Positions 176 through 20,000 of a DNA stretch of 20,000 bases are shown one piece after another. Origin of the DNA: an uncultured virus (IMG/VR IMGVR_UViG_3300043774_001054) (Duplodnaviria > Heunggongvirae > Uroviricota > Caudoviricetes); the IMG/VR virus record IMGVR_UViG_3300043774_001054, positions 53,458 to 73,457 of that record; one strand, written 5' to 3'. The first letter of the stretch is position 1; each line of letters opens with the position of its first letter. The notes beneath the pieces are model-generated. The model was not told where the DNA came from. It did not search any database and saw only the letters and a list, made by a program, of their open reading frames with translations. The position numbers and the translations under genes are program-made.

Positions 176-460
176 TTAATCCTTTCTGGCATCCGTCTTA
201 CCATCACTGCGTGCCAGACGTTCAAGGTCGACGCGTAATCCGAAACGTGATGAGATGAGTGCATCAATACGAATAAGGTCATTATTCATTGTGCGCACAC
301 GGTTGTTCAACATACCGGCAAGACCATTTAATGATTTCACATCATCCACAACTCCCGCAAGGATATACTTGAGGAGAATGACGATGAAGACGCCGCCAGC
401 AATAACTGCTGCAACAGAGAATCCAAGGTCCGCAAATGATTTCAGTGTTTCAAAACTCAT
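176..460 (-). CDS. Small membrane protein (N-terminal TM plus short coiled coil), possibly holin-like
   Basis: Hydrophobic GFSVAAVIAGGVFIVILLKYIL followed by LNNRVRTMNNDLIRID; coupled to its neighbours. Confidence 0.8.
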   Translation of the reverse strand: MSFETLKSFADLGFSVAAVIAGGVFIVILLKYILAGVVDDVKSLNGLAGMLNNRVRTMNNDLIRIDALISSRFGLRVDLERLARSDGKTDARKD

Positions 461-723
461 TATCCATTTACAATCTTAGAAATCTTAGATTCAAACTCTT
501 CGATCTTTTTAATACGGTTGGGCCATTTAATGTATTCCTTCTCTGGGTTCTTCTTCAGATTCTGAAGGAGTGGAAGGATTGCTTGGTATAATCGATTCAG
601 TTTATCTTCGTGATACGCAGCAGCCTTCTCGGCTACGTCAACTTGTTTTGTTACGTCAAGTTCGTCTTCGGCGATCGTTGTGAAACCAAAGTCAAAGGGG
701 TCTATAGAATTATTTGTGGCCAT
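460..723 (-). CDS. Hypothetical protein of a type common in T4-like phages
   Basis: 87 aa with DPFDFGFT and LLQNLKKNPEKEYIKWPNR motifs; downstream of a late promoter. Confidence 0.8.
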   Translation of the reverse strand: MATNNSIDPFDFGFTTIAEDELDVTKQVDVAEKAAAYHEDKLNRLYQAILPLLQNLKKNPEKEYIKWPNRIKKIEEFESKISKIVNG

Positions 724-13706: not shown

Positions 13707-13747
13707 AAAAAAGGACCCAATGAATTTATTTTTTCATTGGGTCCTTT
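13707..13747 (-). terminator. Intrinsic terminator ending the tRNA-island transcript
   Basis: Stem AAAGGACCCAATGAA/TTCATTGGGTCCTTT running into a T-tract, just after tRNA-Ala. Confidence 0.85.
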
Positions 13748-13833: not shown

Positions 13834-14499
13834 TTAGAACTTGAGGGTAACAGCCGAACGGAGACCAACCGTGGTCTTATCGAGATTGCCGTCCTGGAGG
13901 ACAACAAAACCGGCTGATAGGACCTTCCATGAAGCATCAAGTGAACCGCCGTAGTAGGCATTGGTGTATTTGATTTCCTTGACGGTGCGTGGGAAAACAT
14001 CATTTGCGTCGGTATAACCAGCAAATACTGTACCCGTGAGACCGAAGTCGCCAGCAAACTTGGCAGTTTGTGCAAACTTAGCTTCAACATTGGAGAGGTC
14101 GGATTCAACATCATAGCGTCCGGTAACGGTCACTGGACCCTTACCAACGGTAACGAATGGACGGAAGTGTCCATTTGAATCCTTACCCGGACGATTCTTC
14201 ATTGCATACTCGGTACCAACTTTTACGTCGGCAAGAGTTGAGACGAATGTATAACCGCCAAGGAATTTGAACTGGTAGAAATCGACAGAATCAATACCAT
14301 TGAGATGGGTATCTGCCGATGCTCCGACATTGAAACTGCCGATTGAGTAGTCGACTGCGGTAACAGCCGAACCCTTCGTATCAGTGACTTTGCCGAAGTC
14401 AATTCCTTTTTCTTGGTATCCAACCGAAACCGTGCCGCCAGCAAAGGCAGACGCAACAGCAAGAACCGAGATGAGTGTGAGTTTGATTAGTTTATTCAT
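13834..14499 (-). CDS. Outer-membrane beta-barrel protein (porin-like)
   Basis: Sec signal ending in AFA, alternating amphipathic strands, terminal Phe (TLKF). Confidence 0.85.
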   Translation of the reverse strand: MNKLIKLTLISVLAVASAFAGGTVSVGYQEKGIDFGKVTDTKGSAVTAVDYSIGSFNVGASADTHLNGIDSVDFYQFKFLGGYTFVSTLADVKVGTEYAMKNRPGKDSNGHFRPFVTVGKGPVTVTGRYDVESDLSNVEAKFAQTAKFAGDFGLTGTVFAGYTDANDVFPRTVKEIKYTNAYYGGSLDASWKVLSAGFVVLQDGNLDKTTVGLRSAVTLKF

Positions 14500-14528: not shown

Positions 14529-14623
14529 TGGACCGCGTGTAGGGCTCGAACCTACATCTTCAGTTTCGTTCAGGGTGTACTTGACCTGTAACACTGAAAT
14601 CTTATCCTTTAGACGAACGCGGT
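14529..14623 (-). ncRNA. tRNA-like RNA (Arg-like body) with about 21 extra nt in the anticodon loop
   Basis: Acceptor ACCGCGT/ACGCGGT, D arm with GGATA, T arm GTAGG-TTCGAGC-CCTAC; 28-nt anticodon loop ending ACG-AA. Confidence 0.8.
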
Positions 14624-14642
14624 TTATGCTTTACTTTGCCGT

Positions 14643-14761
14643 ATTCCATAGCCTCATATTCGATCAATAATAGATCACATCCGATTCGCTACTTAGCCGA
14701 TGGACTTTATTTAAAGACCGCGGATACGCATAATATCCGCGTGAGGTTCAGTACCTGGAAT
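14643..14761 (-). ncRNA. Putative structured ncRNA (about 120 nt)
   Basis: Closing ATTCCA/TGGAAT, hairpin CGCGGATA/TATCCGCG and smaller hairpins; follows a promoter and boxA-like motif; no ORF. Confidence 0.55.
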
Positions 14762-14795
14762 CTTTTGAGAATGACTGTAAAAGAACTATGATAGA

Positions 14796-14824
14796 ACTAT
14801 ATCTCAACGCCGTCAAAAGTAAAC
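14796..14824 (-). promoter_or_regulatory. Early promoter driving non-coding RNAs
   Basis: GTTTAC-N17-TATAGT, followed by GTTCTTT. Confidence 0.75.
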
Positions 14825-14832
14825 AACAAAGT

Positions 14833-15069
14833 TCACTTTTTCTGCAATTCAATAAGTCTATCTAAAATGTAAAGAGCCATTTGAAAGTTTCCACAGTCAA
14901 TGGCCGCAATTAGTTCTTTTTTCAAATTCCACGCCTTTTCAGCATCGGTCCACGCATCCATGCTATATGCAAGAGAGTTTGGCGTCAATGGAGAGTTTCT
15001 CGCATACGCATTGGCAACCGTCTTCATGGACGGATTCATTGCCATTGGTTGTATCGGTGCTATCTCCAT
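14833..15069 (-). CDS. Hypothetical protein
   Basis: 78 aa; late-promoter-like AATAAATA 5 nt upstream of the ATG. Confidence 0.7.
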   Translation of the reverse strand: MEIAPIQPMAMNPSMKTVANAYARNSPLTPNSLAYSMDAWTDAEKAWNLKKELIAAIDCGNFQMALYILDRLIELQKK

Positions 15070-15101
15070 CTATCTATTTATTATTTTGTAACATTTAGAA
15101 G

Positions 15102-15178
15102 TGGTGCTCATTGTAGGACTCGAACCTACGACCCTCTCGGTGTAAGCGAGATGCTCTAACCAACTGAGCTAAACGAGC
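15102..15178 (-). tRNA. tRNA-Val(TAC)
   Basis: Canonical cloverleaf, CCA. Confidence 0.95.
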
Positions 15179-15182
15179 AAAA

Positions 15183-15260
15183 TGGTTCACTATGGAACTG
15201 GAAGCCGTGTTCCTCCTTTTTGCCGGCATGGCAAACTGCTCTCCGTTGAGCTATTAGTGA
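15183..15260 (-). ncRNA. Atypical tRNA-like RNA (normal D arm, non-canonical anticodon and T loops)
   Basis: TCACTA/TAGTGA-ACCA, TAGCTC..GAGC, TTTGCC/GGCAAA, GGAAC-N10-GTTCC. Confidence 0.7.
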
Positions 15261-15263
15261 AAA

Positions 15264-15634
15264 TGGTGGACCTGAGGGGAGTTGAACCCCTGTGTTCAAT
15301 AATTTTTCCGATAATTTTCTACAAGCTTAGTACTACTTAACTGTCGCCATGATACCGTAATACTGTATCATGATTGTTTTGGTGAGGATACACATCTTGT
15401 ACACCACTTCAAGACGGTCTCGCTTTTTATGACGAGTGTAACACTTAGCGAGAATCTGTGTTATCTACTCGATCACAGTTTTTAGGCTGCGAGTGGCATT
15501 TCTTCGGCGAAACCGAAGAAATTGCTGAGGGCTTTATTAATGCCGTTTAACTTTTTACCAGTTTTTAAAAGGTATCCGGAGAACCTTGCTTGCTTACTAT
15601 AAGTCTATTACTGAGTCGAATCCAGTACAGGCCC
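15264..15634 (-). ncRNA. ssrA: tmRNA
   Basis: 5' GGGCCTGTACTGGATTCGAC; 3' T arm plus CAGGTCCACCA with G3:U; 371 nt; internal frame ending LAA-stop. Confidence 0.96.
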
Positions 15635-15655
15635 ATAAATTTAAAAGAACGAAAT

Positions 15656-15729
15656 TGGATGCTGGGGATGGAATTGAACCATCAGCTCCGCGTTATGAGC
15701 GCGACGAGTTACCGTTACTCTACCCGGCA
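15656..15729 (-). tRNA. tRNA-Met(CAT), atypical
   Basis: Loop CTCATAA; initiator-like A11:U24 but no three consecutive G:C pairs; C4.A69 mismatch; U73. Confidence 0.8.
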
Positions 15730-15735
15730 GGAAAA

Positions 15736-15988
15736 TGAATTTGGGAGGATTAATGATTACCTCCATCGTCCTAGTGTTTTCAGTTATTCAGTCATATGGT
15801 GCCGTCGCACCTTAATAGTCCGCTTGTCATTGTATTTCATGCTTACAAGACTATACCTCTGGTTGCTTAGGTTGGCCGACCCAAGTTTTCAGCGTAGTAC
15901 CTTACCTACTTACACATTGTAGAACTGAGTGATGTTCTTCACACCACCCATGCGTTAGCCCCATTAGAAAGGCTTATTCCGCCACAAA
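15736..15988 (-). ncRNA. Putative large structured ncRNA A (about 250 nt)
   Basis: At least 7 helices, e.g. TGGGTGGTGT/ACATCACTCA, CTTGGGT/ACCTAAG, ATAGTC/GACTAT, GGTGC/GCACC, GGAGG/CCTCC; ends TTCA. Confidence 0.7.
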
Positions 15989-16008
15989 AATTAAAAAAGA
16001 ACAAAAAT

Positions 16009-16295
16009 TAGTGGGACCGTGGATTAATGCCACGCACCGGTCTGTCCCGTAACCTGCTGGTAGAACTTGTATCCAGCCAAGGCATTGGTTTAAAGAGTGA
16101 CAATGCTTCCTCTCCAGGGTGTCGGGCAGTTTAAGTGCACCGACAAAATTTCTCTCATTCCGGCAACGTCAGCATACAGTCCCGACCAGTGCCTATTCCA
16201 CTATTATCGAGATTCTACAACTGTTGCAGACCGTGGTGACAATAGGTTCGTGAAACCAGTTGCAGAATGAGAGTCCAAGGAGATCAAGCCTTGGA
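16009..16295 (-). ncRNA. Putative large structured ncRNA B (about 290 nt) with tRNA-minihelix-like 3' end
   Basis: TCCAAGG/CCTTGGA, CTCTCATTC/GAATGAGAG, TGCAACTG/CAGTTGTA, TGTCGG/CCGACA; GGGAC/GTCCC-ACTA plus 5-bp/7-nt arm. Confidence 0.7.
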
Positions 16296-16362
16296 AAGTT
16301 TTTAGAAAGAACAAAACCGAATTGTAACGAGTGAGCCTCTATTCGTGGCTTTATATAAAAAG

Positions 16363-16536
16363 TCAAGATTTAAAGAATGCCGTTAGTAAAGTTCCGAAAA
16401 AGCAAACAACATTACCAACAAGCAAAGAGATAGAATATTTGTTCCAGCTCCGCATAAAGCCTGGGCGGTCCACGATGACTTTCCAGAAGGTGAATAACCA
16501 ACCAGCGAAGAACAACAAAGTTAATATTAGTTTCAT
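16363..16536 (-). CDS. Small two-TM membrane protein (57 aa)
   Basis: Manual translation MKLILTLLFFAGWLFTFWKVIVDRPGFMRSWNKYSISLLVGNVVCFFGTLLTAFFKS; TTGACT -35-like box upstream; not in the ORF track. Confidence 0.65.
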   Translation of the reverse strand: MKLILTLLFFAGWLFTFWKVIVDRPGFMRSWNKYSISLLVGNVVCFFGTLLTAFFKS

Positions 16537-16580
16537 AAAAGTAATAGTGAAGGGAATTTATAAAGAAAGTCAAGAAAAAA

Positions 16581-16653
16581 TGTCCACGGAGTCGAACCGT
16601 TTTTCACATAATATGATTATGGGCCACCACCTTCTAGCTAGAAAGGCTGGACA
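16581..16653 (-). ncRNA. tRNA-like RNA with canonical T loop but short acceptor and aberrant arms
   Basis: TGTCC/GGACA, ACGG-TTCGACT-CCGT, CATAA-TCATA-TTATG; no CCA. Confidence 0.6.
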
Positions 16654-16657
16654 AAAA

Positions 16658-16759
16658 TGAATCAAGTAGATGTTCGGTGTATTTGTCAATTTCCGCACCG
16701 TAGCCAATCAGCCCTAGACATATTAGGCGATTATTTTCATTAAACGGGTATCTACTTGA
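16658..16759 (-). ncRNA. Putative stem-closed ncRNA ending TTCA
   Basis: 10-bp closing stem TCAAGTAGAT/ATCTACTTGA; internal CGGTG/CACCG and AATC/GATT helices. Confidence 0.6.
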
Positions 16760-16762
16760 AAT

Positions 16763-16833
16763 TGAATCAGTGGTGAAGTTGCAGCAATTTATCTTCACTT
16801 TACATATACCTGCTTGGATAGTATCCTCACTGA
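16763..16833 (-). ncRNA. Mini tRNA-like RNA ending TTCA
   Basis: TCAGTG/CACTGA stacked on GTGAAG/CTTCAC; small GGAT/ATCC hairpin. Confidence 0.6.
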
Positions 16834-16837
16834 AAAT

Positions 16838-16958
16838 TAGATAGAATCGTATAGGCCGTGAAGATTTCAAGAGTCTTTGGGTCTTGCCATCCGTCGCACC
16901 CTGCGAAGTCCAATTAGGCCGAAAGAGCGGCATTTTTGTAACCTCTGATACGATTCTA
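16838..16958 (-). ncRNA. Putative stem-closed ncRNA ending TCTA
   Basis: 11-bp closing stem TAGAATCGTAT/ATACGATTCTA; internal GCCG/CGGC and TCGCA/TGCGA. Confidence 0.6.
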
Positions 16959-16980
16959 AAAGTTTTTAAAGAACAAAAAT

Positions 16981-17050
16981 TGGTGGACTTTATCGTTGCC
17001 CGACGACGGTGGATTTATACCACAGGCTCCGTACTGATTACCGTTTGCCA
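16981..17050 (-). ncRNA. Possible degenerate or permuted tRNA-like element ending ACCA
   Basis: 3' GTCCACCA; internal GTGG-TATAAAT-CCAC hairpin; no clean cloverleaf. Confidence 0.35.
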
Positions 17051-17061
17051 TTTTTTCAAAT

Positions 17062-17138
17062 TGGTGCCTCCTCCGAGATTCGAACTCGGAACCCACTGAT
17101 TAAAAGTCAGCAGCTCTGAACCGTTGAGCTAAGGAGGC
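17062..17138 (-). tRNA. tRNA-Lys(TTT)
   Basis: Canonical cloverleaf, loop CTTTTAA, CCA. Confidence 0.95.
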
Positions 17139-17173
17139 GTAAATTGTAAATGAACGAAATTAATTATGGTACA

Positions 17174-17202
17174 ATCATACACATATTCATTTAAAAGTAA
17201 AC
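17174..17202 (-). promoter_or_regulatory. Early promoter within the tRNA island
   Basis: GTTTAC-N17-TATGAT. Confidence 0.8.
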
Positions 17203-17209
17203 AACAAAA

Positions 17210-17285
17210 TGGTGCCCCCGAGGGAATTCGAATCCCTGTATGCACCGTGAAAGGGTGATGTCCTAGGCCACTAGACGACGGGGGC
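17210..17285 (-). tRNA. tRNA-Glu(TTC)
   Basis: Canonical cloverleaf, CCA. Confidence 0.95.
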
Positions 17286-17314
17286 AATAAAAATGTGTTT
17301 TAAAAGAACAAAAG

Positions 17315-17389
17315 TGGTGCCCCGAGAGGGAATCGAACCCCCATTAACCGCTTAGAAGGCGGTGGTCCTATCCGTTGAACGACCGAGGC
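17315..17389 (-). tRNA. tRNA-Arg(TCT)
   Basis: Canonical cloverleaf, A20, CCA. Confidence 0.95.
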
Positions 17390-17443
17390 ATTAAAAAGAA
17401 CTAAAACCGAGACACTTGAAGTGTTGCTCAATTTCATAATACA

Positions 17444-17519
17444 ATCATACATCAATGTCGGTCAAAGTAAAACAAATAATGCAACTTCGACTGTGTTTAA
17501 GTTGTTGATGGTCAACAAC
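17444..17519 (-). promoter_or_regulatory. Early promoter with upstream palindrome
   Basis: TTTTAC-N17-TATGAT (17444..17472); perfect GTTGTTGA-N3-TCAACAAC at 17501..17519. Confidence 0.75.
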
Positions 17520-17527
17520 CGCACAAA

Positions 17528-18022
17528 TTAATGGATAATGACTCTACATTTTTTTGAGGAATCTGATTTTAGAAGTGTGTCCCAGGACTTTCTCCAGCGT
17601 TTGTAATTCGTGGGGCAAAAGCTACCCTCTGGAATTTTCTGGTGGGTATCAGATTCAACACTATCCTTCTTCATGGAATCAAACCCCCACATATGAATCT
17701 CCGTGTAACCGTTCTGCATTAACCAGAACACTCCACGATGCCCAGTGGATTCACCAGCCCTCAGTTGATGATGCATTACATCTCGAATCTCGGGAGCCGG
17801 ATTGCATTGAGTCGCAATCTTTTTAATTGCATTCGGGATGATGACGGGAAAATTCAACTTCAGTTTATTGTTATGGATGTGGTTGATCACCACCTTGTCC
17901 ATAATGAAGGTCGCCTTGAGCGGCAACGCAGGGTCCGACAGGTTACATCCAAAGATGTCACCCTGAGGCGTATTGATAAAATCCTTTCGAGAAGGACCGT
18001 TTCCGAGAATATGTGCAATCAT
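17528..18022 (-). CDS. Hypothetical protein with a DUF115/sialyltransferase-like Rossmann signature
   Basis: ILGNGPSR, STGH and EIHMWGFDS motifs. Confidence 0.75.
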   Translation of the reverse strand: MIAHILGNGPSRKDFINTPQGDIFGCNLSDPALPLKATFIMDKVVINHIHNNKLKLNFPVIIPNAIKKIATQCNPAPEIRDVMHHQLRAGESTGHRGVFWLMQNGYTEIHMWGFDSMKKDSVESDTHQKIPEGSFCPTNYKRWRKSWDTLLKSDSSKKCRVIIH

Positions 18023-18026
18023 AGAG

Positions 18027-18101
18027 TGGAGCGGAAGAAGGGACTCGAACCCTCAACATCTTCGTTGGCAACGAAGTGCTCGACCATTGAGCTACTTCCG
18101 C
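18027..18101 (-). tRNA. tRNA-Gly(GCC)
   Basis: Canonical cloverleaf, U73, CCA. Confidence 0.95.
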
Positions 18102-18113
18102 AAATTGTTTAAG

Positions 18114-18189
18114 TGGAGCTTCCAATCAGGGTTGAACTGATGACCTCGTCCTTACCAAGAACGTGCTCTACCAGCTGAGCTATGGAAGC
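18114..18189 (-). tRNA. tRNA-Thr(GGT)
   Basis: Canonical cloverleaf, CCA. Confidence 0.95.
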
Positions 18190-18214
18190 GTTTGGTATAT
18201 GTATACATGATAAA

Positions 18215-18291
18215 TGGTGCCTCAGGTGGGAGTCGAACCCACAAAATTTAGATTCTAAATCTAACACGTATGCCAATTCCGTCACCGAGGC
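18215..18291 (-). tRNA. tRNA-Leu(TAG), short variable loop
   Basis: 77 nt; loop TTTAGAA; A73. Confidence 0.9.
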
Positions 18292-18299
18292 TAAAAAAG

Positions 18300-18376
18300 T
18301 GGTGCTCGGAGAGAGATTCGAACTCTCAGCAGCTACTCCCTCAAAGTAGTGTGTTTACCAATTTCACCATCCGAGC
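18300..18376 (-). tRNA. tRNA-Leu(GAG), short variable loop
   Basis: 77 nt; loop TTGAGGG; A73. Confidence 0.9.
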
Positions 18377-18387
18377 AAAAAGTTATA

Positions 18388-18465
18388 TGGTACCCACGGT
18401 GGGAGTCGAACCCACAGTTGAACAGATTTTAAGTCTGTTGTGTCTACCAATTCCACCACGAGGGC
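18388..18465 (-). tRNA. tRNA-Leu(TAA), short variable loop
   Basis: 78 nt; loop CTTAAAA; A73. Confidence 0.9.
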
Positions 18466-18476
18466 ATAACATAAAA

Positions 18477-18550
18477 TGGCTCCCCAACTAGGGTTCGAAC
18501 CTAGACTAGGTGAGTCAAAGTCACCTGTGCTACCATTACACAATCGGGGA
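18477..18550 (-). tRNA. tRNA-Gln(TTG)
   Basis: U1:A72, loop CTTTGAC, CCA. Confidence 0.93.
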
Positions 18551-18554
18551 AAAG

Positions 18555-18631
18555 TGGTGGACCCGGTGGGATTTTAACCCACGATCTAGGGATTATGAGT
18601 CCCTTGCTTTAGGACGCTAAGCTACAAGTCC
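18555..18631 (-). tRNA. tRNA with CAT anticodon (Ile2 or elongator Met)
   Basis: Loop CTCATAA; D loop lacks GG; T loop TTAAAAT. Confidence 0.8.
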
Positions 18632-18638
18632 TCGAAAT

Positions 18639-18713
18639 TGGCTGGCAAAGTAGGACTCGAACCTACAACCCTCGCATTAACAGTGCGATGCTCTGCCATT
18701 GAGCTATATGCCA
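18639..18713 (-). tRNA. tRNA-Asn(GTT)
   Basis: U1:A72, G73, loop CTGTTAA. Confidence 0.95.
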
Positions 18714-18717
18714 AAAG

Positions 18718-18795
18718 TGGTCCGAGCGGCGGGATTTGAACCCACAGTCTTCTGCTCCCAAAGCAGACGCGATAGCCAAGTTACGCTACGCTCGG
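18718..18795 (-). tRNA. tRNA-Pro(TGG)
   Basis: C1:G72, loop TTTGGGA, CCA. Confidence 0.95.
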
Positions 18796-18802
18796 ATGAA
18801 AT

Positions 18803-18880
18803 TGGTGGTGCCGGAGGGAGTTGAACCCTCACGCTATTCCGGGTAAGAACCGGATGCCCGTCCACTGTGGCTTCAGCACC
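18803..18880 (-). tRNA. tRNA-Lys(CTT), atypical
   Basis: Loop TTCTTAC; A at position 8; 7-nt variable loop; CCA. Confidence 0.8.
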
Positions 18881-18890
18881 GAAAATAATT

Positions 18891-18974
18891 AACGTCCGAC
18901 CGATGGGTTTGCACCACGAGAGGTTCCTGAGTCAACTGTACCTCTTTGCTATCGACTTTAACGTATCGGACGTT
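18891..18974 (-). ncRNA. tRNA-like RNA with enlarged anticodon loop and no CCA
   Basis: 9-bp closing AACGTCCGA/TCGGACGTT; AGAGGT-N15-ACCTCT; T-loop-like TGG-TGCAAAC-CCA. Confidence 0.6.
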
Positions 18975-19001
18975 TAATTCCGGTAATTAATCGGAATCAA
19001 A

Positions 19002-19080
19002 ATGGCGGGATGGACGGGACTCGAACCCGCGACCTTCTGCGTGACAGGCAGACGCTCTAAACCAGCTGAGCTACCACCCC
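19002..19080 (-). tRNA. tRNA-Asp(GTC)
   Basis: Loop CTGTCAC, G73; one extra nt in the 3' acceptor strand. Confidence 0.92.
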
Positions 19081-19146
19081 TAAAGTTTCACACAGCCATT
19101 ATTGTCATTGATATAAATCGAGAGGACTACTGTGTATGTTAAATTA

Positions 19147-19356
19147 TTTGAATAGATGTAGCTTTGCTTTATATGACTACACTCCAGCGAGTTTCTTATT
19201 TACGCATAAGCTCCAACACGTTTAATGTTTCCCAATAAACGTACTGTTATGAACTCAGAGGCTTTTCGTTACTTCCATGTTTTTCCGCTGACGGTTAGAC
19301 CCCGTGCTCGTACCGAAGATGGAAACAATCTTCTACATTCCGAGCTGCTATTCAAA
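19147..19356 (-). ncRNA. Putative structured ncRNA C (about 210 nt) with candidate kissing loops
   Basis: Closing TTTGAATAG/CTATTCAAA; GCTCG/CGAGC, GAAGAT/ATCTTC, ACGTTTA/TAAACGT, CAGCG/CGCTG, TGTAG/CTACA. Confidence 0.7.
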
Positions 19357-19358
19357 AT

Positions 19359-19546
19359 TGGATCCTTCTGCCATACAAGTCTTCCAGAACATTTCCAGAA
19401 GATGAATGCACTTGTATGCGTTACACTCTTAAACCCCCTAAAGGAACGCAACCTTTTACACAGGTATAAGATTGCCCAGTTTCTTAGCAACATGGAGCTT
19501 TACCTTAGCGCCGGCGAATGTAACGGTCTGCATAAACACAGAAGAA
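19359..19546 (-). ncRNA. Putative CCA-ending structured ncRNA D (about 190 nt)
   Basis: TTCTTCTG/CAGAAGGA-TCCA; CATACAAG/CTTGTATG; CGTTACA/TGTAACG. Confidence 0.7.
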
Positions 19547-19551
19547 ATTAA

Positions 19552-19618
19552 TTTGATAGTTGATTCCGTACCCAAGACTATTAAAGCTGTCCTCATTAAG
19601 GGTGTGCTAACTATCAAA
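19552..19618 (-). ncRNA. Putative small stem-closed RNA
   Basis: 10-bp closing TTTGATAGTT/AACTATCAAA; internal ACCC/GGGT and GAC/GTC. Confidence 0.5.
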
Positions 19619-19620
19619 AT

Positions 19621-19732
19621 TGGATTGCGGGCTGGACTCGATACCAGCTGACAGCGCCAAATATCCGCGACTTAGCGGGGTCCCTTGCTGCCGTGGACTC
19701 GGAAGGCTGCGTGTCCTTCCACGCCGCCGCAA
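19621..19732 (-). ncRNA. tRNA-like RNA (112 nt) with a branched domain replacing the anticodon arm
   Basis: TTGCGG/CCGCAA-TCCA; D-like GCGTG-GAAGGA-CACGC; T-like GCTGG-TATCGAGT-CCAGC. Confidence 0.75.
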
Positions 19733-19734
19733 AT

Positions 19735-19798
19735 TGAATGCGATTGTGACCGCTTATCAGGTCACTACAAGCGTGGAGACTAAGATCCCTCTATCGCA
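19735..19798 (-). ncRNA. Mini tRNA-like RNA ending TTCA
   Basis: TGCGAT/ATCGCA plus GTGACC-TGATAAGC-GGTCAC; no anticodon arm. Confidence 0.6.
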
Positions 19799-19885: not shown

Positions 19886-19963
19886 TGGGGCGATCAACGG
19901 GGCTTGAACCCGTAACCCCGAAAATCACAATCTCGTGCTCTGGCCAATTGAGCTATGATCGCC
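19886..19963 (-). tRNA. tRNA-His(GTG)
   Basis: G-1:C73 eight-bp acceptor; loop TTGTGAT. Confidence 0.93.
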
Positions 19964-19968
19964 GTAAA

Positions 19969-20000
19969 TGGAGCGCCAGACAGGACTCGAACCTGCATGT
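19969..20000 (-). tRNA. Partial tRNA (3' half only; acceptor end is Gly-like)
   Basis: T arm GCAGG-TTCGAGT-CCTGT plus CTGGCGC-TCCA; anticodon lies outside the window. Confidence 0.8.

Follow-up and report, generated by a model that had tools for sequence, protein, structure and literature searches.

Small folded-RNA cassettes in the gaps of a tRNA array from an uncultured lake-water phage

The closest precedent for the RNAs described here is given by rnaC and rnaD of phage T4. Like the present cassettes, rnaC, a stable RNA of the phage tRNA cluster, combines a canonical T arm with a closing helix at its end. Regarding maturation, PMC2190699 describes a cut by RNase E 1-3 nt past an encoded CCA, followed by RNase P and then by exonucleases, and PMC12710915 reports that cleavage of a non-tRNA substrate by RNase P needs a 3' RCCA.

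The present study concerns an uncultured phage from lake water (IMG/VR IMGVR_UViG_3300043774_001054), of which a stretch of 20,000 nt (positions 53,458 to 73,457 of the record, hereafter the window) was analysed. It carries small folded-RNA genes in the gaps of a tRNA array: between 14529 and 19798, on the minus strand, the spaces among 19 tRNAs and one tmRNA, identified in the window by ARAGORN with concordant Rfam results, are discrete units (Table 1), and all array genes lie on this strand. The original prediction had counted about 17 such cassettes, but U14643 (promoter and leader) and U16981 (no supported fold) drop out and U16009 is two cassettes. We consider it fairly probable that the array gaps represent about 15 genuine small-RNA genes of about a dozen unrelated families, co-transcribed and provided with tRNA-style ends for their release and protection.

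Table 1. Units and other features of the array in window coordinates
Feature	Position	Strand	Description
U19735, 64-nt cassette	19735..19798	-	6-bp closing helix; 6-bp 3' hairpin 1 nt away; tail TTCA
U19621, 112-nt tRNA mimic	19621..19732	-	acceptor-like helix, D-arm-like hairpin; tail TCCA
U19552, 65-nt cassette	19552..19616	-	8-bp closing helix; tail AA(A)
U19359, 188-nt multi-helix RNA	19359..19546	-	8-9-bp closing helix; tail TCCA
U19147, 208-nt multi-helix RNA	19147..19354	-	7-bp closing helix stacked on 7-bp 3' hairpin; tail AA
U19090, 53-nt hairpin unit	19087..19139	-	before tRNA-Asp
U18891, 85-nt unit	18891..18975	-	9-10-bp closing helix, terminal-helix score 9.5
Embedded protein gene, 164 aa	17528..18022	-	within array
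Sigma-70-like promoter	17174..17201	-	consensus scan; upstream of tRNA-Lys(ttt)
U16981, 77-nt insert	16981..17057	-	discrete indel; ends GTCCACCA
U16838, 123-nt RNA	16838..16960	-	11-bp closing helix; tail TCTA
U16763, 72-nt cassette	16763..16834	-	6-bp closing helix abuts 6-bp 3' hairpin (12 bp stacked); tail TTCA
U16658, 102-nt RNA	16658..16759	-	10-bp closing helix; tail (A)TTCA
U16581, 74-nt tRNA mimic	16581..16654	-	canonical T arm CGGTTCGACTCCG, 5-6-bp acceptor helix
U16009a, 147-nt RNA	16150..16296	-	5' hairpin and multi-helix domain closed by CTCTCAT/ATGAGAG
U16009b, 141-nt unit	16009..16149	-	3' tRNA-like minihelix; tail ACTA
U15736, ~255-nt manA-like RNA	15736..15990	-	3' hairpin GGAGGTAATCATTAATCCTCC, tail TTCA; directly upstream of tRNA-Met
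tmRNA	15264..15634	-	ARAGORN and Rfam, 105.6 bits; within array
U15183, 78-nt cloverleaf mimic	15183..15260	-	between tmRNA and tRNA-Val; tail ACCA
U14643	14643..14832	-	sigma-70-like promoter, leader and GC-rich hairpin
U14529, 95-nt tRNA-like RNA	14529..14623	-	standard acceptor, D and T arms
Intrinsic terminator, strong	13710..13747	-	15-bp stem and T run; 3' of tRNA-Ala, array end

Borders, ends and folding of the units

That the gaps resolve into discrete units, as had been proposed, was assessed independently of folding through indels in related loci and in metatranscriptome contigs, and is borne out by their exact borders. One related locus (L011) lacks exactly U19621 and has an additional helix-closed unit of 91 nt between U19359 and U19147; another (L015) lacks exactly U19735, U19621 and U19552, and also U16009b, so that U16009a abuts U15736. 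Three joints in RNA-library contigs correspond to variants without whole units: 17058-16294, 17058-16958, which identifies U16981 as a discrete indel, and 19795-19727, from which U19735 is missing. Gain and loss among related phages concern whole units and are exact at their borders.

Closure of the units by an end-to-end helix was scored as the best uninterrupted helix that the first 6 nt can form with the last 8 nt (G-U counting 0.5). As control, 1000 draws of matching size were taken from coding sequence of the same contig and slid identically. The predicted closure is confirmed, with a score of at least 6 in 14 of the 17 listed units against a control mean of 0.68 of 17 and a maximum of 4; the lower scores are those of U16981 (2), U16009 taken as a single piece (3) and U15736 (4). 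Relative to dinucleotide shuffles, folding energies have a mean z of -1.76 for the 17 units and of -1.84 for the 18 true array tRNAs tested; in another run, z is negative in 16 of the 17 units and at or below -2 in seven. The two strands differ only weakly in folding energy, minus being the better one in 11 of 17.

Past the closing helix, NYCA tails are found in nine of the 17 units (four TTCA, two TCCA, two ACCA and one CCA) and TCTA or ACTA in two, in line with the tails originally listed, but four or five units end in AA or AAA. Tails also differ among homologues (ACCA/ATCA and TCCA/TTCA). They are not uniformly NCCA-like, and homologues of U19621 end in TA or TT. A T-rich spacer (ATTT, TTTT or CTTT) stands behind each unit tail and behind all true tRNAs, as the claim of shared spacers had it.

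Three listed units count against the reading: U14643, U16981 and, for want of a homologue, U18891. U14643 was rejected on account of its promoter and leader, with promoter-like sites at 14823-14796 and 14816-14788; its z is -0.6, and the motif TTTGTTGTTTAC...TAT noted for it occurs four times in the contig. A folded RNA is unsupported in U16981 (z of +0.5 and +0.33 against shuffles), for which the homologue search found none.

Conservation, covariation and strand

Homologues of 14 of the 17 units occur in other uncultured phage contigs. In the homologue-covariation check called for with the original prediction, compensatory changes were found, so that this check does not refute the prediction; they show selection at the RNA level. 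Ten units have at least one compensatory base-pair change (U16009a, U19147, U15736, U19621 and six with smaller counts). In several alignments there are just one or two homologues, more than 90% identical, and most pairs are invariant. Covariation support is strong for the four named. For U16009a (n=15, 64-96% identity), 23 of 47 pairs are compensatory and 98.6% of cells are paired, slid controls giving 2-5 pairs and none of 500 shuffles reaching the observed value. Compensatory pairs number 9 of 58 in U19147 (n=6, 82-99% identity), which is also found in a second tRNA array on a 297-kb phage contig, 9 of 61 in U15736 (n=6) and 5 of 29 in U19621 (n=6, 80-86%).

Among the other units, U16838 (z -3.1) has two distinct homologues (89-91%) with 3 of 35 pairs compensatory, and U16658 (n=11) has 2 of 25. 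The latter is nearly invariant across phages, with 92% identity to the copy in locus L017, whose tRNAs show 65-80% and tmRNA 68.5%, and its neighbours differ from phage to phage. One compensatory pair each was found for U19090, with three homologues (91-94%) and a weak fold (z of -0.5 and -0.16 in two runs), and for U19552, with one distinct homologue sequence (97%; L011 and G004, the contig of L019). The fold of U19359 (z -3.3) is only partly supported: in seven sequences of 88-97% identity, 0 of 63 pairs are compensatory, six one-sided changes keep pairing and one variable segment breaks five predicted pairs; its tail is ACCA in two homologues. U16763 has one homologue (96%, L026 contig) with a single one-sided change that keeps the pair. 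The homologues of U19735 (97%, L011 and G004) show no variation in paired columns and end in TCCA. U16009b, in whose predicted minihelix GGGAC/GTCCC closes a CGTGG-CATTAAT-CCACG hairpin, has a single homologue (98%). Searches for homologues of U18891 returned none beyond near-identical contigs; this unit is specific to the present phage and unsupported beyond its own fold.

Compared with 4227 Rfam families, the 17 units gave no match except the tRNA-like U14529 and the weakly manA-like U15736 (22.2 bits to RF01745, below the gathering score of 55.2; 32.5 bits for its homologue in L085), and the same comparison of twenty related loci (117 kb) returned tRNA and tmRNA and nothing else. Apart from the four mimics and U15736, the units have no match among Rfam families, GenBank phages or E. 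coli genomes. Two corrections apply to their listing as unexplained: U14529 attains the Rfam tRNA score, and U15736 is manA-like below threshold. One cassette is manA-like, and the remainder beyond the mimics are new families.

On the opposite strand, the invariant G-U pairs of U16009a and U19359 would turn into C-A mismatches, and wherever homologues were checked their strand is that of the adjacent tRNAs; both observations identify the minus strand as the RNA strand.

The tRNA-derived mimics

The tRNA-mimic nature first attributed to the cassettes applies to four of them, U14529, U15183, U16581 and U19621, which derive from tRNAs and lack a conserved decoding loop. In U14529 the anticodon arm is lengthened into a rod of ~14 bp that ends in a 10-nt loop, and the anticodon “loop” measures 30 nt; the unit is reported as a tRNA by ARAGORN only with an intron allowed and scores 41.6 bits against Rfam tRNA in the sensitive scan only. 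Its one homologue (92%) has three compensatory pairs and no breaks, with tail TCCA vs TTCA. A 221-aa ORF lies downstream. U15183 (z -2.7) is composed of a 7-bp acceptor helix with one mismatch, a tRNA-type D arm, a 6-bp stem with a 5-nt loop and a T stem with a 10-nt loop; its one homologue (L019, 83%) shows two compensatory pairs, one one-sided change and no breaks, the loop being ATGCC in the window vs AGGAA and the tail ACCA vs ATCA. In U16581, which lacks CCA, CAT is inside a zipped hairpin; ARAGORN calls it tRNA-Met(cat) at the 80% threshold only, the sensitive scan against Rfam tRNA gave no match, and the single homologue is 97% identical. A 57-aa ORF lies downstream of this unit. In the consensus fold of U19621 the loop of the T arm is 8 nt long (TATCGAGT), a long hairpin is added and the anticodon arm is missing; the unit is a tRNA only for ARAGORN at the 80% threshold and with an intron of 41 nt permitted, and has no match to Rfam tRNA at E up to 10.

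The suggestion that such RNAs are decoys for anticodon nucleases (PrrC, AriB, PtuAB, VapC) is weakened, the anticodon loop of the mimics being missing, zipped or unconserved: the loop of U15183 is unconserved, U14529 has a long rod in its place and U19621 is devoid of the arm. We regard this role as unlikely; synthetase sponges and scaffolds are further candidate roles from the original prediction. The mimics have kept the acceptor/T-arm “elbow” and lost a decoding anticodon loop, and our best guess is that they occupy host factors recognising the acceptor/elbow end of tRNAs.

Transcription, release and exchange of the cassettes

The consensus scan indicated further sigma-70-like sites at 17465-17436 and 14823-14788 and, with models that leave Bacteroidota host promoters outside, no further promoter or terminator from 17174 to tRNA-Met (15729/15730), which makes a single transcription unit plausible over 17174-15730. 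RNA-library contigs from several studies extend over the tmRNA, U15736, U16009, U16658 and U19147/U19359, and one, at a depth of 122, reaches from tRNA-Lys across both U16009a and U16009b into U15736, DNA carry-over being possible in these assembled contigs. The protein gene embedded in the array belongs to a family seen in viruses only (47 homologues); CstII sialyltransferase folds and MptE-like HPPK folds are similar to its model (pLDDT 93.8), at TM 0.53-0.60.

The cassettes would be co-transcribed with the tRNAs and tmRNA on the tRNA strand, from a few sigma-70-like promoters to the terminator behind tRNA-Ala. Their ends appear tRNA-like: the terminal helix, which in many cases stacks on a 3' hairpin, is followed by a tail of 2-5 nt, commonly NYCA, and a U-rich spacer. 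Host tRNA-maturation enzymes may cut the precursor in the spacers. Presumably these are an endonuclease of the RNase E/G type, RNase P acting on the 5' side of the helix, and exonucleases that trim from the 3' end until the helix halts them; the helix would then shield the released RNA. The proposed release from one precursor through RNase P and 3' trimming is consistent with these features. Homologues of U16009a and U16658 lie directly behind a tRNA CCA, separated from it by no more than ATTT or TTTT, and in relatives a Pistol self-cleaving ribozyme is located right behind a cassette (L017:4220-4286, L085:639-706), which fits a need for cutting cassettes free. The motif TTTTGTTCTTT(T)AAAA, whose five occurrences precede some units, could alternatively be an unrecognised promoter, in which case the RNAs of those units would be primary transcripts and 5' processing would be unneeded.

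In the preferred reading, co-transcription followed by tRNA-style processing, the shared spacers (..YCA ATTT..) may double as recombination joints, so that the choice and order of cassettes differ among related phages. Most of the small-RNA cassettes in this phage tRNA array belong to undescribed families.

Structured RNA units between the phage tRNAs

The window forms the final 20 kb of an IMG/VR viral contig of 73 kb, whose completeness is estimated at 45%. According to ARAGORN and Rfam it carries 19 tRNAs and a tmRNA, each of them encoded with its CCA on the minus strand, and it ends in an incomplete tRNA. In the near-identical contig L010 the array extends past the window to reach 30 tRNAs covering all 20 amino acids; the upstream half of this array, past the window end, has five larger gaps with roughly 8-10 further helix-closed units, one of which has the T arm ATAGGTTTGATTCCTAT and the tail ACTA and some of which terminate in ATCCA or AATTA. 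The DNA is nearly complete in 14 lake-water metagenome runs. The tRNA-Lys(CTT) of the window, whose D region is unusual, scores no more than 44.5 bits; a different Lys(CTT) with a higher score (63.8 bits) lies at the same position in L011, a contig of a related phage. Genes found near the array, from a scan of 14 of the larger ORFs of the window, encode an ATP-dependent DNA ligase, a phosphoesterase, a family-2 glycosyltransferase and a methyltransferase. A 164-aa protein encoded inside the array belongs to a family seen only in viruses, with invariant GNGPS, H95 and HxWGFD motifs, and a confident model of it resembles the folds of CstII sialyltransferase and of MptE-like pyrophosphokinases.

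Features of the array and of related loci (window positions unless a contig is named)
Feature	Location	Strand	Remarks
tmRNA	15264-15634	minus	
Partial tRNA (3' part)	19963-20000	minus	truncated by contig end; the L010 tRNA at this place is tRNA-Cys
tRNA-Lys(CTT)	18803-18880	minus	
164-aa gene	17528-18022	minus	inside array; homologue in related contig L017 likewise array-embedded
57-aa ORF	16363-16536	minus	between U16581 and U16009a; hydrophobic stretches, two predicted by eye; U16581 directly upstream
ORF with U14529 directly upstream	13834-14499		
U16658	16658-16759	minus	
U16009a	16150-16296	minus	
U16009b	16009-16149	minus	
ORFs overlapping units (examples)	16634-16933, 19225-19551		span several independently mobile cassettes
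Sigma-70-like promoter-like sites	17465-17436, 17201-17174, 14823-14788	minus	
Strong terminator	13747-13710	minus	after tRNA-Ala
Motif TTTTGTTCTTT(T)AAAA	starts 17311, 16976, 16314, 16004, 15652	minus	
Extra 91-nt cassette of L011	alignment A5 columns 456-546		between U19359 and U19147 copies; closed ACTGCA/TGCAGT, tail AATTA
Pistol ribozyme	L017:4220-4286		54.5 bits
Pistol ribozyme	L085:639-706		52.1 bits
manA-like matches	L084:587-860, L087:587-860		
Upstream half of array past window end	L010:2260-3895		

The units between the tRNAs (U-handles, numbered by their window start) were re-derived on the minus strand, and a terminal helix scoring at least 6 was found in 14 of the 17. When 1000 size-matched sets were drawn from coding regions of the same contig, with equal freedom to slide their ends, such a helix occurred on average in 0.68 of 17 units and at most in 4, which places the terminal helices about 20 times above their chance frequency. 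The mean fold z-score of the units was -1.76, against -1.84 for the 18 array tRNAs tested. On the 3' side of the closing helix the tail reads NYCA in nine units, TCTA or ACTA in two and AA or AAA in four to five; the first C of NYCA may be U, homologue pairs reading ACCA/ATCA and TCCA/TTCA, and each tail is followed by the same T-rich spacer as the true tRNAs. The helix is stacked on a 3' hairpin in U19735 and U16763 (6+6 bp) and in U14529 (7+5). Folding energy separates the two strands weakly (11/17); invariant G-U pairs and changes from U-A to U-G point to the tRNA strand. The discrete and mostly helix-closed units that had been described from the sequence are real. Most entries of the original list of 17 stand, with the reservations that U16009 consists of two cassettes and that U14643 corresponds to a sigma-70-like promoter followed by a leader.

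Related contigs were retrieved by means of two neighbouring proteins, short DNA patterns and whole-record BLAST. The search for homologues and covariation proposed with the original prediction came out in its favour, homologues beyond the near-identical contigs being found for 14 of the 17 listed units and compensatory pairs in ten units. The largest set was obtained for U16009a, for which slid alignments gave 2-5 pairs and none of 500 shuffles was as high as the observed value.

Compensatory base pairs in the units with homologues
Unit	Sequences	Identity	Compensatory pairs	Remarks
U16009a	15	64-96%	23/47	98.6% of cells paired
U19147	6	82-99%	9/58	
U15736	6	76-96%	9/61	
U19621	6	80-86%	5/29	
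U16838	3	89-91%	3/35	
U14529	2	92%	3/29	no broken pair
U15183	2	83%	2/18	no broken pair
U16658	11	87-95%	2/25	
U19552	2	97%	1/18	
U19090	4	91-94%	1/16	

U19359 displays no compensatory pair; six one-sided changes still pair in this unit and one variable segment breaks five predicted pairs. The folds of U19735, U16763, U16581 and U16009b, with one homologue each at 96-98% identity, stand without a test by variation. No homologue outside the near-identical contigs was found for U18891, U16981 and the narrow U14643, and U16981 resembles a 3' fragment ending GTCCACCA.

Rfam searches of the window, at the gathering threshold and at E up to 10, and of 24 related loci in all returned only tRNA, tmRNA, Pistol (in the relatives only) and a sub-threshold manA match. 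The units of class 3, i.e. those that are neither tRNA mimics nor U15736, match none of 4227 Rfam families; the only Rfam matches among the units are those of U14529 to tRNA and of U15736 to manA. The gap DNA has no match in 50,697 GenBank phage records, T4 included, nor in any E. coli genome, a search of six of the supplementary files of PMC10690425 for short pieces of U16658 and U16009a gave no match, and literature searches found no description of such cassette arrays. A direct-repeat search for paralogy revealed only tRNA-derived parts and a spacer motif shared between cassettes. Protein coding by the units was rejected, since overlapping ORFs span several independently mobile cassettes and the homologues carry indels of 1-4 nt. 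The array of small structured-RNA cassettes is real and mostly undescribed.

Cassette borders, exchange and proposed expression

The borders of the cassettes are revealed by their presence and absence among relatives. An alignment of the Trp-Asp gap of three sequences shows that U19621, and exactly this unit, is missing in L011, which carries in addition a helix-closed unit of 91 nt found neither in the window nor in L015, another related contig, in which tRNA-Trp runs directly into U19359. The second half of 'U16009' is missing in L015, hence its division into U16009a and U16009b. RNA-library contigs show direct junctions of tRNA-Lys with U16009a (17058 to 16294, in two runs) and with U16838 (17058 to 16958), and U19735 is skipped as well; the 57-aa ORF is missing, together with five cassettes, from the variants found in these contigs. 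Parts of the stretch that such contigs do not cover are uninformative in either direction. As the neighbour upstream of U16658, six sequences have tRNA-Lys, two have U16838 and the window has U16763; U19147 is also present in a second tRNA array on a contig of 297 kb.

Between the window and L017 the identity of U16658 reaches 92%, compared with 65-80% for the tRNAs, 68.5% for the tmRNA and 66% for U16009a of the same two phages, and the long unpaired stretches of U16658 are invariant in 11 sequences. This anomaly could reflect either an extreme sequence constraint that includes the unpaired stretches or a recent exchange between phages. No host-encoded copy was found: the invariant 20-mer of U16658 occurs in 2 of 185,579 species genomes scanned, once in a phage-like contig of 3.2 kb that carries a tRNA array and was binned in a Flavobacteriales MAG and once as a chance match inside a membrane-protein ORF. 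From the first of these matches a Bacteroidota host may be proposed, as a guess only. Mimicry of rRNA or antisense pairing with it was rejected: against an 8.7-kb stretch of one relative of this MAG, intended to contain its rRNA operon, only U16838 (15 nt) and U19359 (14 nt) have a complementary run that exceeds those of all 100 shuffles, and both runs fall outside the rRNA genes by an estimated operon layout in which only the 16S position was located.

Promoter-like sites and a strong terminator are present in the array, and a scan of the cassette run from 17061 to 15730 found no promoter-like or terminator-like site. Considering this uninterrupted run and the homologues of U16009a and U16658, which abut the CCA of a tRNA with only ATTT or TTTT in between, co-transcription of the cassettes with the tRNAs would be the simplest reading. 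One RNA-library contig spans tRNA-Lys, U16009a, U16009b and U15736, in agreement with this reading, a contig being no proof of a single transcript. For polycistronic tRNA precursors of E. coli, PMC2190699 describes a cut by RNase E 1-3 nt after the CCA, followed by RNase P and then exonucleases, and PMC12710915 reports that a 3' RCCA aids RNase P cutting of non-tRNA substrates. The cassettes have these tRNA-precursor features, namely a U-rich spacer, a terminal helix and an NYCA tail, on which the host tRNA-maturation enzymes would act, and a role of the tRNA-style end as a processing tag is plausible. Pistol ribozymes above the gathering score of 34.5 occur in the tRNA arrays of two relatives, one directly behind a homologue of U16009a and the other directly behind a homologue of U15736, consistent with a need for the cassettes to be released by cutting. 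The motif TTTTGTTCTTT(T)AAAA is found five times, only inside the array, between the 3' end of a unit and the next RNA (the Glu tRNA, U16838, U16009a, U15736 and the tmRNA), and could be an unrecognised promoter or processing signal.

tRNA mimics and relation to known RNAs

Four units (U14529, U15183, U16581 and U19621) form a class of tRNA-derived mimics (class 1). The tRNA mimicry attributed to the array in the original prediction is genuine for these four, the only tRNA-like ones among about 15 cassettes. The acceptor, D and T arms of U14529 are standard, and in a sensitive scan it scores 41.6 bits with the tRNA model RF00005 (gathering score 29 bits), the default filters having missed it; in place of an ordinary anticodon arm there is a rod of about 14 bp with a loop of 10 nt, the 30-nt anticodon 'loop' folding into this rod. 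U15183 is a cloverleaf with a 10-nt T loop and a 5-nt 'anticodon' loop reading ATGCC, against AGGAA in its homologue, U16581 has a canonical T arm and a CAT in the 3-nt loop of a zipped 6-bp hairpin, and U19621 displays acceptor, D-like and T arms (the T loop exceeding the normal length by one base) and a long additional hairpin and lacks an anticodon arm. The last three have no match to RF00005 at E up to 10, and a 5-bp anticodon stem with a 7-nt loop and a conserved anticodon is found in none of the four. Their 3' ends are diverse: U15183 ends ATAGTGA-A-CCA and its homologue ATCA, U14529 ends in CCA without discriminator and its homologue in TCA, and U16581 has no CCA. In their T or D arms the mimics are similar to tRNAs of this array: the T arms of U14529 and tRNA-Val share 94% identity, and U15183 has a D arm resembling those of tRNA-Gly and tRNA-Asn. 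Overlooked ordinary tRNAs were rejected as an explanation of the units: ARAGORN with introns or with an 80% threshold recovers only U14529, U16581 (called tRNA-Met only at the 80% threshold) and U19621, and these relaxed runs also give several obvious false calls on the opposite strand.

The nearest precedent is that of rnaC and rnaD, the small stable RNAs 'species 1 and 2' of the T4 tRNA cluster. Their precursors are cut by RNase P, and to our knowledge their function is still undetermined. The units lie inside a phage tRNA cluster, on the same strand and a few bases apart from their neighbours, and rnaC and rnaD are likewise non-tRNA RNA genes on the tRNA strand, a few bases from their neighbours (AF158101 annotation). 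With its canonical T arm GGGUUCGAAUCCC and a closing helix at its end (z -4.6), rnaC is similar to the tRNA-ended units; rnaD folds no better than shuffles (z -0.8). Neither has sequence similarity to the units in the comparison of the gap DNA with the phage collection including T4. The scale and modularity are new relative to these T4 genes: T4 has two such RNAs, whereas about 15 are present in the window and about 8-10 beyond it, with about a dozen families shuffled between relatives.

U15736 resembles manA (RF01745), a candidate riboswitch known from marine bacteria and from T4-like cyanophages, and is itself also found in phages. The alignment of U15736 and its relatives with the manA model extends over the full length (positions 1-192), and they have in common with it the 5' hairpin motif GUG.C.GAAUAA...UAA as well as the 3' hairpin GGUA...UAAUCC; the central part is different, and none of the scores (22.2 bits in the window, 32.5 in L085, 31.0 in L084 and 17.6 in L087) reaches the gathering score of 55.2. 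PMC2864571 describes manA RNAs in the 5' UTRs of protein genes; unlike these, U15736 is followed after 6 nt by tRNA-Met and its homologue in L085 by a Pistol ribozyme. Judged by these comparisons, U15736 is manA-like and not a member of manA. The matches in L084 and L087, two other phage contigs, have the 3' hairpin GGAGGTAATCATTAATCCTCC and a GAATAAC-like motif as their sole features in common with U15736, the rest being unalignable, which suggests a wider manA-like family built of reused modules.

GOLLD and ROOL, single large RNAs of about 580-800 nt, have only the proximity to tRNAs in common with the units, which are numerous, 50-255 nt long and unrelated in sequence, and neither was matched in the window at E up to 10 or in the related loci. 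Both are described in PMC5737381 as structured RNAs of undetermined function, often near tRNAs and in prophages, with a length of 581 nt for ROOL. Theta (HDV-like) ribozymes adjoin phage tRNAs and cut their precursor, as reported in PMC10879173. Theta and Pistol ribozymes are self-cleaving, whereas cleavage by host enzymes is proposed for the cassettes of the window, in which no self-cleaving ribozyme (Pistol, HDV-like/theta, hammerhead, twister, hatchet) was found at E up to 10. The tRNA-like t-elements described in PMC1920247 form mRNA ends in plant mitochondria, their acceptor/T-arm mimic being a handle for tRNA-processing enzymes, as proposed here; they act on organelle mRNAs, whereas most of the RNAs tagged here are conserved structured RNAs themselves.

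Alternative readings and significance of the array

The units could be nothing else than cis-acting t-elements or stabilisers for RNase P or RNase Z-type cuts, without function in trans, that protect the ends of the neighbouring tRNAs, tmRNA and three small mRNAs. U14529 and U16581 indeed lie directly upstream of ORFs, L015 keeps U14529 in front of a homologous ORF, and t-elements forming mRNA ends are known from plant mitochondria (PMC1920247). This reading is nevertheless rather unlikely, as most cassettes have only other cassettes as neighbours, the long unpaired stretches of U16658 and the loops of U19147 are invariant, which would be needless for a mere cutting signal, and units of 150-255 nt with many covarying helices far exceed what it would need. 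Selfish or recombinational DNA modules, either MITE-like or integron-cassette-like and with the closing helix as an inverted repeat at the DNA level, would account for the exact borders at which each cassette is present or absent, for the ..YCA ATTT.. sequence common to the junctions and for the conservation of U16658 in excess of the tRNAs, expected after a recent horizontal spread. We regard them as improbable: the sequence of the terminal helix differs between families, so that there is no shared transposase site, no transposase or integrase gene was noticed among the 14 larger window ORFs scanned, and shared terminal inverted repeats and target-site duplications, as expected of MITEs, were not found, the direct-repeat search retrieving only tRNA parts and the spacer motif. 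Moreover the internal helices covary, the conserved G-U pairs and the changes from U-A to U-G are sensible only in RNA of the tRNA strand, and mobility is compatible with an RNA function.

Debris, made of decayed tRNA pseudogenes and of spacer folding by chance, could be evoked by the clear tRNA origin of four units, the fragment-like aspect of U16981 and the modest fold z-scores. The true tRNAs of the array have the same z-scores, however, the terminal helices far exceed chance, homologues are found in phages with just 47% protein identity in a neighbouring gene, and the changes in the mimics U14529 (three) and U15183 (two) are compensatory, with no broken pair. Debris is therefore a very unlikely explanation, largely refuted for the units with covariation, though it may still hold for U16981 and U18891. 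It is equally hard to believe that the mimics are decoys soaking up anticodon nucleases of the PrrC, AriB, PtuAB or VapC type. They keep tRNA-like acceptor, T and D elements, and the phage has a full tRNA set for all 20 amino acids when the part beyond the window (L010) is included, large phage tRNA sets being proposed as anti-defence devices in PMC12803027; yet tRNA-like cassettes are a minority of the array. Enzymes that cut the anticodon loop require that loop, and it is absent in U19621, turned into a rod in U14529, closed to 3-5 nt in U16581 and U15183, and unconserved between U15183 and its homologue, which argues against such decoys. The targets of the mimics could possibly be factors reading the acceptor end or the elbow of tRNAs.

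Beyond the reading of the cassettes as RNA genes co-transcribed with the tRNAs, we tentatively consider, as a rather unlikely possibility, that large freshwater phages, with Bacteroidota as suspected hosts, keep a recombining library of tRNA-tagged RNA genes, with cassettes swapped at shared ..YCA-AUUU.. joints. Unrelated structured RNAs would borrow a tRNA-style end and be matured by the host tRNA machinery; the anticodon-less mimics would be decoys or inhibitors of host factors reading the acceptor or elbow, for example defence toxins modifying or cutting the 3' CCA end; and U16658 would be an RNA traded horizontally, with a sequence-specific target or with a core for catalysis or ligand binding. 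If true, such a library would be the RNA counterpart of an accessory-gene island.

Annotations of phage tRNA clusters usually show tRNAs separated by empty spacers. Here, about 3 kb of 'spacer' consists of dense, conserved structured RNAs, at least four of which display strong covariation, none of them in Rfam, leaving about a dozen new RNA families to characterise. The array provides a testable design rule, that of a tRNA-like end serving as a tag for maturation and stability, and shows that phages can shuffle RNA genes among themselves in the form of cassettes. The natural series that it constitutes, including mimics devoid of an anticodon loop, offers new handles on the function of rnaC and rnaD and on RNA-based host takeover or counter-defence.
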